Source: a virus (taxonomy: Duplodnaviria > Heunggongvirae > Uroviricota > Caudoviricetes). Taken from it: a stretch of DNA of 34,006 nt. Below the pieces are notes generated by a model. The model saw only the letters and a program-made list of their open reading frames with translations, ran no database searches and was not told where the DNA came from. Location of the stretch: IMG/VR virus record IMGVR_UViG_2734482588_000013. One strand, 5' to 3'. Shown one piece after another: positions 2,327 to 19,577 of this stretch; the first letter of the stretch is position 1; every line of letters begins with the position of its first letter. A program made the position numbers and the translations under genes.

Positions 2327-5300
2327 TACCGATATGCTCCACTTAACCGACCACCATCACGGGCCTGCTGTTGCATAAAGTCCGCTGCCGCTTTTTTCCC
2401 AAGGTCATAAACCACCTTCAGGGCAGCCGGACCTATCTGCCCGTTCGTGCCATCGTTATTGATCTCGATGTTGTACTGCGGGGCAAACATCGCCATACCT
2501 GAACCACCAATATCCGCTACAACCCCCAGCTTACCGTCAGCACCACGACGCAGTGGCAGAATGGCTTCAGGTCCAGCTTCCCCCATCACACCCGCGCCTT
2601 TTGCAAAAGCAAAAAACGTCGGACGGTTAACCACCGTGCCACTGTAGCGGCTCAAATCAGCCGACTGATAAACACCGCCATCAGCATTGGCTACAAAATC
2701 AAAAGGCAGCGCGGAAGCAATGCCTTTTACCGCTTTCATTAAAGCTATCTGAGCCATGATTCTGGACATATCTGACAGCACAGAAGAGGTGAAGGATTTG
2801 AAATTGAGTTTGCCTGTAGTACAGAATGTCGCCAGCCAGTCACTCATGCTACTGAACGCAGACGTGAACAACTGTTCCACTGTCCCGGCTGTGTTATCTG
2901 CTTTCTCAGTGACATTCTGGAGTGCACGCAGGACTCCGTTTTTCCAGTCACCCTGAGCAATTTCAAGCTGTTGCCAATAACGGCGATTCTCATTCAGTTG
3001 TCGGTTCAGGCTCTCCGTCAGCGCCTGCTCGGCCTTTCTGTAGTCATCCGTGTTATATGTCCCTTTCTGCTCACTATCCCGCCTCAACTGCTCCAGCTGT
3101 TGCTGATATTTCTGGCGAAGACTCAGTTGTACCTGATATCGCTGCCTCTGCTGATCACCCATACCCACCGTGGCGATATCCAGGTCATGTTGCTGACGCT
3201 GAGCGCGCTCTTCTTCAGCCAGTTGACTGGTCAGCTGAATTGTTTTTTTCTTCAGCTCGTTGAGTGCCGTCTGTTTCTGAAGCTCCTGCTGTTTTACATC
3301 CAGCAGCGTCAGTGCCTGAATCAGTTCATCTTTACGGGCCAGCACACTCTTTTCATCTGCCGTCAGTTTTTTCCCGTCCAGGTCGCTGATGCGCTGCTGC
3401 AGAGCCAGAAGCTGTTTATGCGCTTCTGTCATCCTTTCCGTGGCAATGCCTGCTGACTGTCTGGCAGCAGCAATCTGTCCTTCCACCTGTGCCTGTTGCT
3501 GACTGTACTGCAGCAATAACCGGGTGGCCTCATCATTACGGGGTTCGCGTGTTTTTTTCTTACCGGATGCCAGGGCTTTCTCGTAACGTTCATTTTCACG
3601 TTGTATCGCCGCATCCCTGACAGCCTGATCGGCGTACTGCATGGCATTAATACGCGCAATTTCACGCTGATGTCGTGCTGCTTCCGTTTCATTCATCCGG
3701 TTCAGTGCAGCATTTTCAGCATTACGGCGTTTCTGTTGCTCCTGATAATTCCGCTCTGCCTGCTCTTTTGCATCCTGCAAATCCTTCTGGCGTTTTTTCT
3801 CCTGAAGCTCGTTAAGACGCTGCTGATCGTACTCAACCTGAGAAGATGATGCCGTCCAGGGGAGTCTTTTCGCCCGCGACACTTTCTCCTGTAAAGCGGA
3901 AATCTGTTCATCCAGCGAGTCTTCACGACCAATATTCATGGCCGCATCCCAGAAACGACTCCATAAATCAGACAGATACTTCAGCGTACTGCCCAGCGCA
4001 TTGAGGTTATTATCAATATCCGCAGTACGCCGACCGGTTTCCTCTGCCAGTGCAGACATGGCTATCCGTGCAGCATCACTGGACCGTCCCTGATCCCCAA
4101 GGACACGTATCTGCTCAAGCTGAGTGGCAGTAAGAAAATGCAGCTCATTGTCCAGAGCCTTCGCGGCATTTACAGGATCATCCTTCAGCCGCTTAAACTG
4201 ATTTATGGTATCGCTGACCGACTGGCCAACCGATCGCTCCATCTGTGCGGCAGCTCTCGCCACCATACCGATATCGTTTCCACGAAATGCACCACTCCCC
4301 ACCACCTGAGCCAGCGCACCGGCTGCAGCATGTTGCGTGATACCATTCCCGGAAATAGCACGACTAAGCGTCCACAGCTGCCCGGCAGTGACTCCGGCAT
4401 AATGCCCCGTCAGCGACAACTGGCGGTTAAATTCTTCCCCCTCCTTCTGACCGTCATACCAGGCTTTACCCAGACCATAGACGGACGCGGCAATACCGCC
4501 AATAACCCCGCCAAGCATCATGCCTTTCGGTGACATCAGAGTGTCTATCCATCCGGCACGGTTAGCCAGCGTTATCCCGGATCCCCTCAGCGCCCCTAAA
4601 TTGCCGCGGGCCAGTTCACCTATCAGAACGCCTATCTCCTGGCGGGCCGCTGCACTTTTCAGACCCAGCGAATGCGTGGCTTTTCCTGCCTGCTCCATTT
4701 TGCGGATATACACTTCTGCAGCACTGCTTACCCCCAGCTGGGCAGCCTTAGCACGAAGCAACTCAGAAGAAGAAAGATTCTGGCGGGTTGCCTGCTCTTT
4801 AAGCTGACGGATAAACGCCACTTTCTGTCGGGTAGCCTCTTCCTCAGCCTGCGTAAGAACACGGGTTTTCGCCGTAACCTCAGAAATCAGCGCCAGATAA
4901 TCCTGCTGACCAATCCCGCCACTGTTTCTGGCCTGTCGGATCTGCTGCTGAATACGCTGTAATTCCTGCAGCCCCGCACTGGCCTGTTTCACACTGTCAA
5001 TCTGACGATAAAACGCGGCAGCCGCTTTATCCTGAGCCTCCGCCAGAGCCATGGCCTGCGCCTGTTCCTCGCGCATTTTCTGGCTCAGCGCCTCCATGCG
5101 CTGGCGGGTTTGCTCCACCTCGCGGGCCATGCGTTCATGAGCCTGTGCGCTCTTCTCCACCGTCTGCGCATGGACGGATGCGGCTGTTGCAGCCGAAGAA
5201 GCCGCCTGCATTGTCTGCCGGGCGGCCTGAGTCTGACGCTCCATAAAACGCTGCATACGGGCAGAAGACCGTTCTGCATCGCTGGCTGCACCATTCAGAA

Positions 5301-15743: not shown

Positions 15744-16211
15744 CTACTTAATGCGCTGGGTGCGGATATATTCCTGCGCCCCTTCCAGTTGCTTCTGCAT
15801 CGTCATCAACCGTTCTCTGAGGGTGAAATAATCCCGTTCAGCGGTGTCTGCCAGTCGGGGGCTGGTTGCATTATCCATGCTGGTGGGTCCGGTGGCTTCA
15901 CGCACGGCTGCGGAGCAACTGGCATTGACCCGCAGGCGCTTACGACCAGCGGCAACATCAGCGTGCAGAGTTTCATTTTCAGTTTTCGCATCGGCTAACT
16001 CCTTCGTGTATTTTGCATCGATCGCAGCAACATCACGCTGACGCTGCTGCATGTCAGCGATGGTGGCGGTCGCCTGCTTCAGCTCACTGACTTTTTTATC
16101 ACGCTGTTCTTTGTAGGCGATGGCGTTATCACGGTAATGATTGACCGCCCACGACAGGCAGACGATGATGCAGATAACCAGAGCGGAGATAATCGCGGTT
16201 ACTCTGCTCAT
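15744..16211 (-). CDS. Rz: i-spanin Rz
   Basis: Protein begins [30 protein letters not shown], matching remembered lambda Rz. ATGA overlap with the endolysin stop. Confidence 0.9.
15806..15991 (-). CDS. Rz1: o-spanin Rz1 (lipoprotein embedded in the +1 frame of Rz)
   Basis: 61-aa ORF with lipobox (LVVSAC), Pro-rich region and C-terminus [14 protein letters not shown], matching remembered lambda Rz1; fully nested in Rz. Confidence 0.85.
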
Positions 16212-16705
16212 TGTTGCCCCCACAAACAGACTTCACGCTCAATCTCACGACGAGTCATCAGGCCTTTCCATTGCTTACCGCCAGCGTATGTCCAGCGACG
16301 TAGCTGGTCACATGCGCCTTTGATATCGCCCTGGTTTATTTTGCGAAGAAGCGTCGATGTTCTGAAATTGCCAGCACCCACGTTGTAGACGAACGAGTAA
16401 AGAGCGCCGCGCGTTGTTTCCGGTATATCGACTTTGATGTACGGGTTAATTTGTCTGGCGACCGTGGCAAGGTCTTTATTCTGGAGGGCTTTGCATTCTG
16501 CTTCGGTATACGTTTTACCTAGCATGATGTCTTTTCCGGTGTGTCCGTGACATACAGTCCATACGCCAACGATATCTTTGTATGGTATGTAGCTGACACC
16601 TTCCAGGCCATCGTCACCACTCGGACCAGTGATGAGCACAGACGCTATGGCAACAGCCCCACCACCAATAGCAGCAGCAACAGCCTTGCGTAATGATGGC
16701 GACAT
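16208..16705 (-). CDS. R: SAR endolysin (phage P21 R-like lysozyme)
   Basis: N-terminal signal-arrest-release segment ([18 protein letters not shown]) followed by a lysozyme core; matches remembered P21 endolysin. Confidence 0.9.
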
Positions 16706-16920
16706 TATTCACCTCTCGCAGCCTTACGCTTATCTTCTTTAATCTTGAAATAAAGGTTTGTCAGATACGTCAGCAAGCCAAATACCAGACTACCCAGCAC
16801 ACCTATTGCCGCCCACTGTGAGGGCGTGACTTTATCGAGCAACTGTAAAAACCAGTACCCGGCACTACCTGCTGAGGTGCCATAGGCGACACCCGTTGTT
16901 AACTTATCCATGGATTTCAT
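16705..16920 (-). CDS. S: pinholin (S21-like holin, dual-start MKSM)
   Basis: 71-aa ORF with two transmembrane segments and a charged C-terminus ([13 protein letters not shown]), matching remembered P21 S21; 1-nt overlap with the endolysin start. Confidence 0.9.
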
Positions 16921-16986: not shown

Positions 16987-18039
16987 TTATTTCCCCACCA
17001 GCTCGTTTATCTCTTTCACTGTCTGGTTAAACCGCTCTGACTCAAGCTCAACACCTAAGGCCCGACGCCCCAGCGCCATTGCTGCTTTTATTGTGGAACC
17101 GGATCCCATAAAAAAATCAGCAACCAGATCACCAGGTCGACTACTGGCATTGATTATTTGCCGGAGCATATCCGCAGGTTTCTCACACGGATGTTTACCC
17201 GGGTAGAACTGAACGGGTTTATGCATCCAGACATCGGTATAAGGCACGGAGACTGATACGGAGAAATAGCGCCGGAGAGATTTAAACTCATCCAGCAATT
17301 CAGAATATTTGCGATTCAGTGAATCATAAGATGCCACCAGCTGGTGGTGTGGTTGTTCCAGTTGTTGTTCCTGAAACTTCTCTGCCGCTATACGGGAAAA
17401 CAGTGCCTGTAACTTCCGATAGTCAGCCTCATTCGGCAACTGCCACTGACTGGCACCAAACCAGTGGGAAACCATATTTTTCTTACCTGTGGCTTCGGCA
17501 ATTTGTTTTGCCGTTATACCCAGTTCGGCACGAGCATCCCTGAAATACGATATCAGCGGTGCCATTATGTGCTGTTTGAGTTCCCTTTCTTTTGCCGCAT
17601 AGCCGTCACTTTTGCCGCGATATGGCCCCTGGTAATGTTCAGCAAACAGAACGCGCTCTGTGGCAGGAAAATATGCGCGCAGACTTTCTTTATTACACCC
17701 ATTCCAACGTCCGGACGGCTTCGCCCAGATGATATGGTTAAGCACGTTGAAACGTTCACGCATCATGATCTCAATATCAGATGCCAGACGATGCCCACAG
17801 AACAGGTAAAGGCTTCCGGCAGGTTTTAACACCCGCCAGAACTGGGCCAGACAGTGGTCCAGCCACTTAAGGTAATCTTCGTCCCCTTTCCACTGATTGT
17901 CCCAACCGTTGGGTTTCACCTTGAAGTAAGGCGGATCGGTAACAATCAGGTCAATGGAATCATCAGGCAGGGACTGAATAAAATGCAGGCAATCAGCGTT
18001 GATTAAATCAACACTGTTTATTTTTACAGTATTTTTCAT
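16987..18039 (-). CDS. DNA methyltransferase, beta-class amino-MTase (N6-adenine or N4-cytosine)
   Basis: Motif IV DPPY near the N-terminus (LIVTDPPYF) and motif I FxGSGST near the C-terminus (FFMGSGSTI); an internal insertion of about 150 aa includes an HTH-like stretch. Confidence 0.85.
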   Translation of the reverse strand: MKNTVKINSVDLINADCLHFIQSLPDDSIDLIVTDPPYFKVKPNGWDNQWKGDEDYLKWLDHCLAQFWRVLKPAGSLYLFCGHRLASDIEIMMRERFNVLNHIIWAKPSGRWNGCNKESLRAYFPATERVLFAEHYQGPYRGKSDGYAAKERELKQHIMAPLISYFRDARAELGITAKQIAEATGKKNMVSHWFGASQWQLPNEADYRKLQALFSRIAAEKFQEQQLEQPHHQLVASYDSLNRKYSELLDEFKSLRRYFSVSVSVPYTDVWMHKPVQFYPGKHPCEKPADMLRQIINASSRPGDLVADFFMGSGSTIKAAMALGRRALGVELESERFNQTVKEINELVGK

Positions 18040-18189: not shown

Positions 18190-18417
18190 TTACTGGCAGC
18201 GTCTGAATTTATTCCCGTACCCACCGTTATCCTTCGCCAGACCCGCCAGAACTAACTGAGTCAGTATTAACTGGCACCGGGCTTCGCTTACTCCGGTAGT
18301 TCTCGTCATCATGCGTGGCGTTACCCACTTGTCAGCAGGTAAGAAATGAAGGACTGCGGCGGCGGTTTCTGTCATATCTTGCTGTTTTAGCATGTCTTTT
18401 TCCCTTCTGGTTAACAT
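18190..18417 (-). CDS. hypothetical small protein (possible winged-helix DNA-binding)
   Basis: 75-aa ORF with GAAGGGA 7 nt upstream of the ATG; co-directional with and upstream of the methyltransferase gene. Confidence 0.4.
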   Translation of the reverse strand: MLTRREKDMLKQQDMTETAAAVLHFLPADKWVTPRMMTRTTGVSEARCQLILTQLVLAGLAKDNGGYGNKFRRCQ

Positions 18418-18515
18418 GACATACCAATAACTCTTGTCTAAAAAGCCAGCAAGATAAAAAGTCAGTATTCACGACCACCAGCGTGTTTACTGTACTGCAC
18501 CAAGTTTACAGGTAC

Positions 18516-18541
18516 AAAAAAACCGCTCAGCGGCGGGTTTA
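18516..18541. terminator. bidirectional terminator-like hairpin
   Basis: AAAAAAA-CCGCTCAGCGGCGGG-TTT: short GC stem flanked by an A-tract and a T-tract, between the divergent 75-aa ORF and the lipoprotein gene. Confidence 0.35.
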
Positions 18542-18663
18542 AGTTGTGTGGCGAAGTAACCACTCTTAACAGCATATTTGATTTTTTACGATTGTAAACG
18601 GTTGATTATTCATCTCCAATAAAAATAATTGTGTAGGTATGCCCTTAACAATGGATAAGAAAC

Positions 18664-19110
18664 ATGAATAAAATGACTGTACTATTACTTAGCGCAACTA
18701 TCATTTCAGGTTGTACTTCTTCCGTACCATTGATAAAGAAAACTCAATCAGGAAAACCTGAGGGGGTTTATCAAAATACGACAAAAGATAAAGTCAAAGA
18801 TGCCCTTGTGAATTACTGCAATAGTAGAGGGTTGATAATTTACAACGCGGATAACAGCAGTGTTATATGTGGTAAAGAACTGGAAGGCGGGTCTGCTGTT
18901 TTTGGACAAATGTTAATCGGCAATGCCTATTCAACAACCCCGGTATCAAAAGTCAGATTTACTATCGCTCAAGTTAATAACGATACAAAAGTGTGGGCCG
19001 ATATGTGGATGGAAACTCAAATGGCAATGGGGCAAGTACAACAAATGGCTATAACAGACAACGCAAGCAAAAACACTATCCAACAACGTCTTGATGAATT
19101 AAAACCTTAA
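18664..19110 (+). CDS. lipoprotein of unknown function (moron)
   Basis: 148-aa ORF with a signal peptide and lipobox (LSATIISGC). AT-rich, opposite in orientation to the late operon, with its own AT-rich upstream region. Confidence 0.7.
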   Translation: MNKMTVLLLSATIISGCTSSVPLIKKTQSGKPEGVYQNTTKDKVKDALVNYCNSRGLIIYNADNSSVICGKELEGGSAVFGQMLIGNAYSTTPVSKVRFTIAQVNNDTKVWADMWMETQMAMGQVQQMAITDNASKNTIQQRLDELKP

Positions 19111-19152
19111 GTAAATTAATTAAATAAAATGGGGAGAATAAATCGACTCCCC
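19111..19152 (-). terminator. hairpin with U-tract on the minus strand (terminator between convergent Q and lipoprotein genes)
   Basis: GGGGAG-(10 nt)-CTCCCC stem-loop; on the minus strand it is followed by ATTTTATTTAATT. Confidence 0.45.
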
Positions 19153-19154
19153 AC

Positions 19155-19183
19155 ACATTAAACTGATTCAATTACCCTCTCAA
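19155..19183 (-). promoter_or_regulatory. candidate late promoter pR' (sigma70-like)
   Basis: Minus strand TTGAGA-17 nt-TAATGT immediately downstream of the Q stop, the position expected for pR'. Confidence 0.3.
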
Positions 19184-19194
19184 TAAGAGGTCTT

Positions 19195-19560
19195 CTAACG
19201 ATCCATCTCTAGCTCAATTTCTAACATCATTAACATGCCATCAACTACACCTTCAGCCTTTTGCAATAAACGCCCAACCCAGCAATCAGAACGCCCATGT
19301 TTACGGGCAAGCGCCATAAACGTCATACCACCTACATAATAATCCACTAATAAATCGTGCAAATCGCTGTTGTTCTTTTTCAGGCGAGCCATGCATCCAC
19401 AAATGATCATCGCGTCATCGTCACAACATTGCGGGCGGGATTTTACTTTTGAAGGGATTAGTCCTTTAAATCCTGCAGCAATAGACGACCAAGTGACATC
19501 CTCGTGATTATTTGCCACCCATGCCCCCCAACGTTCAAGAACCATTTGAATATCACGCAT
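19195..19560 (-). CDS. Q: late antiterminator Q (QuuD-like family)
   Basis: Protein [14 protein letters not shown]...[31 protein letters not shown] matches remembered E. coli prophage Q homologues. Start at the internal Met with GGAG 7 nt upstream. Confidence 0.85.
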
Positions 19561-19577
19561 CAACTTTCTCCACAAAA

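Follow-up and report, generated by a model that had tools for sequence, protein, structure and literature searches.

The lambdoid Escherichia coli prophage represented by IMG/VR record IMGVR_UViG_2734482588_000013 (34,006 nucleotides, hereafter the window) has its late genes on the minus strand and carries, on the opposite strand between the antiterminator gene Q and the late promoter pR', a gene encoding a small predicted lipoprotein. Comparison with related phages and prophages indicated, with a high degree of confidence, that this gene belongs to an AT-rich mobile cassette of 596 bp comprising a candidate sigma-70-like promoter of its own that stands back-to-back with pR', a single gene, and a hairpin that also serves the end of Q. 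Among the functions considered, the single most likely one, proposed tentatively by analogy with known exclusion lipoproteins, would be to block the entry of incoming phages from the lysogen envelope.

An earlier note on this DNA had described a 148-residue open reading frame (ORF) with a signal peptide and a lipobox, opposite to the late genes; the ORF was present exactly as described, and its N-terminus matches the PROSITE lipoprotein pattern PS51257. The gene is currently annotated as hypothetical protein WP_001038608.1. The product begins with MNKMTVLLLSATIISG, followed by the lipobox cysteine Cys17 and by Thr-Ser at positions +2/+3 (the start reads MNKMTVLLLSATIISG-CTS). Lys3 provides a charge in the n-region, and the segment matching PS51257 is LLLSATIISGC. 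The lipobox cysteine was invariant in the aligned relatives (75/75), none of which has Asp at +2. In E. coli, lipoproteins devoid of Asp at this position are sorted to the outer membrane (the +2, or Lol, rule). The protein is predicted to undergo Sec export and lipidation and, because Asp is absent, Lol-dependent sorting to the outer membrane, as a mature protein of 132 residues with a computed mass of 14.5 kDa and pI of 8.5.

Comparison of the gene with seven homologues gave proportions of synonymous differences (pS) of 0.72-0.85 and of non-synonymous differences (pN) of 0.18-0.30. Saturation at synonymous sites alongside a conserved protein sequence indicates a real gene under purifying selection. 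The protein matched PHROG 3152 over its full length (E 1.3e-104, residues 1-148 on profile positions 1-148 of 148). An exhaustive profile search recovered 823 cluster representatives (50% identity) at E≤1e-3, and 408 at ≤1e-10. Proteins sharing 49-72% identity were encoded in Salmonella, Jejubacter, Citrobacter, Enterobacter, Phytobacter, Morganella, Xenorhabdus and Photorhabdus, with remoter relatives in Proteus, Haemophilus and Halomonas. Among 5426 complete E. coli genomes, 185 contained the 851-bp region at a coverage of at least 80%, in most cases with 99-100% identity, and the gene is carried by two cultivable phages, PhiR40_1 and PhiR55_1. Three motifs are conserved in the family (SGKPEG, GNAYST and KVWADMWxETQM). 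Cys52 and Cys69 were retained in 54 of 55 relatives, which suggests that this pair probably forms a periplasmic disulfide.

The homology and structure searches proposed by the earlier note returned PHROG 3152 and a generic fold, and no match that names a function; a Pfam search with 55 relatives returned no family and one lipobox motif match only. Weak PHROG matches to Rz1-type spanins (E 0.02-0.04) were confined to residues 1-45. They span just the signal peptide and lipobox, and a spanin identity was rejected. The name 'VirB7', attached in UniRef to a Xenorhabdus relative, was rejected as a lipobox/signal-peptide resemblance; sequence searches of the PDB with two profiles produced only chance or signal-peptide matches (nanobodies, OutS, the TrwH/VirB7 lipobox), and matches of this type account for the label. 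Nothing was found in the literature under the accession or the phage names, or on the DLP12 slot.

The cassette extends from the Q stop codon to the pR' -35 element. Homology with phages harbouring a related Q stops at the last Q codons and restarts exactly at this -35; in 933W there is no cassette, and pR' overlaps the 3' end of Q. The AT-richness claimed by the earlier note was confirmed, with a G+C fraction of 0.38 for the gene and 0.507 for its 3-kb flanks; the dip covers positions 18450-19350, across which values of 0.36-0.41 were found, against 0.47-0.58 on either side. Other phages have different genes in the same place. Where Q is 82-83% identical (434, mEp332 and Kati), an NmpC-type porin gene occupies the same convergent position (Porin_1, E 4e-156, tested for Kati), and in IdasGreatGrand, whose Q shares 85% DNA identity, the slot contains a Blc-type lipocalin lipoprotein (Lipocalin_2, PF08212, E 1e-43); these porin and lipocalin genes lie at positions 1690-2787 of locus L013, 1690-2787 of locus L011 and 2284-2808 of locus L012. 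Because a porin, a lipocalin or a lipoprotein gene is found there, the Q-pR' slot seems to be a site where outer-membrane cargo gathers. The absence of the gene from 933W, its replacement by a porin or lipocalin elsewhere, its sharp boundaries and its deviant G+C content all bear out the earlier reading of it as a moron.

In Kati and 434, the sequence just past the Q stop codon (AATTGTTTACTAAAAAT) resembles the pR' -35 and spacer (GTTTACGTACGTAAAAAAT; L013 ~2940-2975 and L003 ~2440-2475, minus strand). Possibly this is what remains of an ancestral junction of Q with pR', split by the insertion of a cassette.

With respect to a promoter and terminator of its own, the gene is preceded by a promoter-like site with 9 of 12 consensus matches and followed by a hairpin. 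The site at 18602-18629, a consensus match only, is the best candidate on the plus strand, and 3 bp separate its -35 from that of the divergent pR'. A similar arrangement (TTGATT-17-TATTAT) was found upstream of the Citrobacter homologue, for which the terminator is clear. The hairpin between the convergent 3' ends of the lipoprotein gene and Q folds on the minus strand with -13 kcal/mol (z -3.3) and on the plus strand with -11.2 kcal/mol (z -3.9). The minus strand has a U-rich tail and the plus strand has none; read on the minus strand (19152-19133), the hairpin looks like a terminator for transcripts leaving Q. Both of the hairpins that the earlier note placed around the gene exist (18522-18536 and 19133-19152), although the former is the terminator tR' and no part of the moron. 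Direct and inverted repeats around the gene were short and chance-like.

The late promoter module next to the cassette was recognised by its similarity to the annotated pR' promoter, qut and terminator in 933W and VT1-Sakai, with which it shares 79-80% identity across an 89-nt alignment. Positions 18517-18590 are also 88% identical to the block that lies between the nmpC porin and holin genes in Kati and mEp332, and a 96-nt query over the pR' block matched 362 phage records. The leader is short, about 45-50 nt. Because the Q protein shares 80% amino-acid identity with that of 933W, the block is considered the cognate late promoter. The 84-bp stretch separating Q from the 3' terminus of the lipoprotein gene was also searched for a late promoter on the minus strand, and none was found. 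The earlier note had late transcription running antisense through the gene. This is not borne out by the position of pR'-qut-tR' (18598-18515, minus strand), which is separated from Q by the gene and directs transcription away from the gene. Antisense transcription could arise solely by read-through of early transcripts past Q, and the hairpin at 19152-19133 is placed to stop it.

The gene does not have the placement of Stx downstream of pR'/tR': the pR' block lies beyond it and is directed away. Being upstream of pR' and pointing away, the gene is therefore outside the late transcription unit and could, as a consequence, be expressed on its own in the lysogen. Since the slot lies upstream of pR', its cargo escapes Q control, unlike Stx. 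That Q loading at pR' might affect the candidate lipoprotein promoter is speculation. Two further annotations overlap the late promoter module: the PhiR40_1 record has a 37-residue coding sequence over it (18462-18575, minus strand), probably spurious, and a sub-threshold match to the Rfam family STnc130 covers tR' on the opposite strand (18412-18548, plus strand; 26 bits against a gathering threshold of 55), most likely by chance.

In E. coli the cassette is associated with Q. This Q allele (at least 95% identity) was always accompanied by the lipoprotein gene, the searches for the two recovering an identical set of 185 genomes, and Q was adjacent and convergent in 47 of 49 IMG/VR loci; the methylase gene located after tR' was missing in 8 of these loci. 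The same Q-lipoprotein module was found in prophages with differing head and tail modules and integration sites. In one IMG/VR locus (L049 6445-8340), about 1.8 kb, possibly an insertion sequence, separates the lipoprotein gene from Q. E. coli TB4328 has the same module and, beside gpJ, a sodC (Cu/Zn superoxide dismutase) moron on the opposite strand (L108 1956-2483).

Table 1 Features of the window around the lipoprotein gene (positions are those of the window).
Feature	Position	Strand	Basis or remark
Cargo cassette: promoter region, lipoprotein gene, 3' hairpin	18599-19194	+	Homology boundaries, G+C
Lipoprotein gene	18664-19110	+	ORF, ATG to TAA, 148 residues; PHROG 3152 match, purifying selection
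Predicted signal peptide and lipobox, IISG/C17	18664-18714	+	PS51257 pattern
Candidate sigma-70 promoter of the lipoprotein gene, TTGATT-16-AATAAT	18602-18629	+	Consensus scan, 9/12 matches
Hairpin between the convergent 3' ends of the lipoprotein gene and Q	19133-19152	both	Folding energy
Antiterminator Q (QuuD/933W type)	19195-19575	-	PF06530, 2e-51; convergent with the lipoprotein gene
pR'-qut-tR' late promoter module	18598-18515	-	Homology to the annotated 933W block; neighbour of the cassette
pR' -35, TTTACA	18598-18593	-	Start of homology
pR' -10, TATGCT	18576-18571	-	Within homology
tR' terminator hairpin	18536-18522, T-run to 18515	-	End of homology after the T-run
68/75-residue ORF	18190-18417	-	PHROG 331
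N6/N4 DNA methylase	16987-18039	-	PADLOC MTase_II, 3e-152; type II-like
S21-type holin	16705-16920	-	Late gene
Lysozyme	16208-16705	-	Followed leftward by spanin, terminase, head and tail genes

The earlier note had placed the gene between Q and the lysis cassette. This position is correct, although the interval also holds the small ORF and the methylase gene. The first genes past tR' are the PHROG 331 ORF and the methyltransferase gene, not the holin gene. In TB4328, tRNA genes and genes encoding TerB, DUF3927 and DUF6645 proteins replace the methylase; in GB089, tRNAs, TerB and DUF3927 genes follow it. The window itself contains no tRNA genes. Judged by this gene content, the region after tR' represents a second variable cargo zone, located inside the late transcript.

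Outside E. coli the family is found in other places. Contexts were assigned by tblastn against reference tail and early proteins together with Pfam, using non-E. coli variants dereplicated at 90% identity (n = 25). Standalone homologues were nearly all prophage-borne. Eighteen of the 25 variants lie on the same strand within the tail-tip block, from the tape-measure gene to J, at four or more different junctions: one between the tube/chaperone and tape-measure genes, nine after the tape-measure gene and before M, three between M and L, and five between K and I. The remaining variants are located in the nin region (one), in Mu-like Halomonas prophages near gp27/terminase (two), directly after an S24 CI-like repressor gene (one), on a primase-bearing contig (one), at a chromosome edge next to phd-doc (one) and, as a chromosomal fusion with a PDZ module, in Sphingosinicella (one). 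Because one cluster sharing more than 90% identity was found both in the nin region and after the tape-measure gene, the lipoprotein gene moves as a cassette. In agreement with this, it is AT-richer than its flanks in six of seven host backgrounds; in enterobacterial hosts except the low-GC Photorhabdus its G+C content is 8-15 points below that of the flanks, and five other hosts gave values of 0.39-0.44 for the gene and 0.50-0.57 for the flanks. In Citrobacter the gene sits within the tail operon together with a strong intrinsic terminator and a promoter-like site of its own.

A homologue sharing 40% identity (L107 3027-4428) follows the S24 (CI/LexA-like) repressor gene directly and on the same strand, a position that would give expression in the lysogen. 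In another locus, the homologue is followed by one more small signal-peptide ORF, which has 100 residues and no Pfam match (L098 6561-6863), both being inserted between the tube/chaperone and tape-measure genes. The junction between the tape-measure gene and M in Photorhabdus (L016 3877-12056) is an 8-kb cargo island with the homologue, DUF2545, ORF6N/P22 antirepressor-like genes and the toxins HicA and HigB.

An AlphaFold2 model of the lipoprotein was built from a 20-sequence alignment, with a mean predicted local distance difference test score of 85.8 and a predicted template modelling (TM) score of 0.76. The modelled protein consists of a flexible tether followed by elements in the order beta-alpha-beta-beta-alpha-beta-beta-beta-alpha. 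Foldseek returned DUF4468, TBP-like domains and BamC (best E 2e-3, TM 0.3-0.45), and nothing significant against a viral structure library. The model suggests a helix-grip alpha+beta fold of the kind seen in BamC, DUF3568 and KA1-like domains, which is generic among lipoproteins and implies no function. In longer relatives, PDZ, TPR/BamD-like or SHOCT modules, all of them domains for interactions in the envelope, are attached C-terminally to the domain, an architecture consistent with a periplasmic interaction domain. The PDZ fusions were observed in Alphaproteobacteria (Sphingosinicella, L032 5740-6699; Erythrobacter, NZ_CP031358.1 47298-47588), in a non-phage chromosomal context for the former and on a 408-kb plasmid for the latter. 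Relatives with TPR/BamD-like or SHOCT extensions were metagenomic.

Lipoprotein morons are a classical route by which prophages alter the host surface and exclude rival phages. The earlier note had suggested a factor for lysogenic conversion, exclusion or surface modification, and we propose tentatively that the lipoprotein acts in this way. Its expression in the lysogen and its function in the envelope are suggested by context; it would be made in the lysogen and anchored in the outer membrane, facing the periplasm. Superinfection exclusion would take place at an outer-membrane or periplasmic step. Like Llp and Rtp45, the lipoprotein might bind an outer-membrane receptor from the periplasmic side; alternatively, it might disturb the tail-tip/tape-measure machinery crossing the periplasm. 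Exclusion at entry is favoured because the family is nearly confined to prophages and enriched beside entry-machinery genes, and because Llp and Rtp45, the only phage lipoproteins with such a topology that are well understood, work in this manner. The exclusion genes cor and HK97 gp15 also adjoin entry-machinery genes. Llp acts on FhuA and Rtp45 on LptDE, both have the same lipoprotein topology, and their genes are placed beside entry-machinery genes (PMC12685063). Because the E. coli allele is linked to Q and not to the tail module, specificity for the tail of its own phage is disfavoured.

Several observations weigh against a role in blocking entry. The sole PHROG family matched, 3152, has its function listed as unknown, the lipoprotein had no match in Pfam, NCBIfam or PADLOC, and known exclusion lipoproteins sought in the PDB by sequence and by fold gave no match. 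The mature protein (14.5 kDa) has more than double the mass of Llp or Rtp45 (~6 kDa). When counted as independent insertions, the tail-tip positions come down to about four junctions, versus about six contexts elsewhere, and the junction between the tape-measure gene and M is a general cargo hotspot that also receives toxin-antitoxin and antirepressor genes. The near-invariant E. coli allele travels with Q alongside varied head and tail modules, and the candidate promoter shows just 9 of 12 consensus matches.

The main rival explanation, which we regard as possible but doubtful, is that the lipoprotein serves host fitness or virulence in a role like that of Bor/Iss or Blc, through tolerance of envelope stress, resistance to serum or antimicrobial peptides, adhesion, or the binding and trafficking of hydrophobic ligands. 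This explanation is favoured by the general envelope proteins (a Blc-type lipocalin or an NmpC/Lc porin) encoded in the same slot next to a related Q, by an E. coli allele that does not vary and shows no dependence on the tail module, by non-phage PDZ fusions encoded on alphaproteobacterial chromosomes, and by a fold with a ligand-binding flavour. Against this, the fold matches are generic (Foldseek E 2e-3 or worse, TM 0.3-0.45), the protein has no homology to Bor, Iss, TraT or Blc, and the tail-tip location of most variants would be left unexplained. That same location, on the same strand inside the tail operon in most other genera, points to late co-transcription and could indicate an accessory function in the lytic cycle, either late masking of the receptor against loss of progeny on debris, the second role of Llp, or modulation of the envelope steps of lysis, for which the weak matches to Rz1-type spanins (E 0.02-0.04) could also be invoked. 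We consider such a function improbable: the spanin matches are limited to residues 1-45, the gene is here outside and opposed to the late transcription unit, the window already has its own lysis cassette, and in Citrobacter the gene comes with a terminator and a promoter-like site of its own.

A special case of entry blocking would be an immunity protein or inhibitor directed against a tail-tip cell-wall hydrolase, such as the C40/NlpC-P60 protein K or the lytic domains of tape-measure proteins. The gene is recurrently adjacent to K (JAB and NlpC/P60) and tape-measure genes, and many immunity proteins against peptidoglycan hydrolases are periplasmic lipoproteins. Cargo hotspots explain this adjacency equally well, however, the E. 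coli gene is unlinked to K, and there is no similarity to known hydrolase inhibitors, which makes this special case very unlikely. Finally, the ORF is annotated everywhere as a hypothetical protein only, and its homologues lie among tail genes, as might be expected of a chance ORF or decaying remnant, or of a structural tail protein; the probability of either is close to nil. On conservation data, the non-gene reading is already refuted: synonymous sites are saturated with a conserved protein, 823 clusters were recovered, and the structure model is confident. Identification as a structural phage protein, which the earlier note held would speak against a moron, did not result from the analysis. 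The tail block of the window is contiguous and complete without the lipoprotein gene, which together with the lipobox excludes a structural role; the invariant lipobox means export and lipidation, incompatible with virion assembly in the cytoplasm.

The broadest interpretation in keeping with entry blocking is that PHROG 3152 represents a widespread new class of outer-membrane lipoproteins, unrelated to Llp, Cor and Rtp45, that would block siphovirus genome delivery at a periplasmic or tail-tip step and be carried as single-gene cassettes at six or more kinds of site including the Q-pR' slot, where the promoter would possibly be switched off when Q engages pR'. We hold this wider proposal to be possible yet doubtful. 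To our knowledge, lipoprotein morons have been worked out for just a few small families (Llp, Cor/Rtp45, Bor). The present one spans prophages from Escherichia to Haemophilus and Halomonas and occurs in roughly 3% of the complete genomes of E. coli, and with a confident model and the cultivable phages PhiR40_1 and PhiR55_1 it is directly testable. Late regions of the QuuD/933W type have a cargo slot upstream of pR', which matters for predicting the timing of prophage cargo expression.

The interval between Q and S is a classic cargo region of lambdoid phages, and lipoprotein morons there are familiar; what is new is a cassette upstream of pR', a family whose size and prophage-wide mobility are undescribed in the libraries, and its recurrent residence at the tail tip. 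The closest parallel in position is the NmpC/Lc porin cassette of DLP12, PA-2, 434, mEp332 and Kati, which occupies the same slot, convergent after a QuuD-type Q (82-83% DNA identity) and with pR', leader and tR' beyond, and which has an outer-membrane product. The porin, however, is a 365-residue beta-barrel with no sequence relation to the lipoprotein, and its cassette measures about 1.7 kb (Kati, mEp332) against 0.6 kb. The Blc-type lipocalin gene of IdasGreatGrand is likewise a small outer-membrane lipoprotein gene, convergent and directly downstream of Q (85% DNA identity), but its product has a lipocalin fold and two more genes precede the pR'-like sequence. The late region of the lambdoid prophage lambda likewise contains a lipoprotein moron, Bor/Iss, which is expressed in the lysogen. 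Unlike the gene described here, bor lies after Rz and not after Q, and its product differs in size and fold; the lipoprotein had no Pfam or PHROG match to the Lambda_Bor family, and its 55 relatives had no Pfam family.

HK97 gp15 is a moron located in the tail block next to the tape-measure gene and targets the DNA-entry step. Many homologues of the lipoprotein gene similarly lie directly after the tape-measure gene, although gp15 resides in the inner membrane, is no lipoprotein and lacks homology to them. Known helix-grip lipoprotein domains are the N- and C-domains of BamC, DUF3568 (Flpp3) and DUF4468/TBP-like domains; the Foldseek matches of the lipoprotein model to DUF4468, TBP-like domains and BamC had an E of 2e-3 at best. 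Llp of T5 and the Rtp45/Cor-type proteins are encoded close to entry-machinery genes (PMC12685063), as are most homologues of the lipoprotein. Adjacency to the tail tip is not found in this window, and the 18 of 25 homologues that have it elsewhere sit at junctions that are also general cargo hotspots. Unlike Llp and the Rtp45/Cor-type proteins, which are about 6 kDa, the lipoprotein has a mass of 14.5 kDa and showed no similarity to them in sequence or fold, and its gene here adjoins Q and not the gene for a receptor-binding protein.

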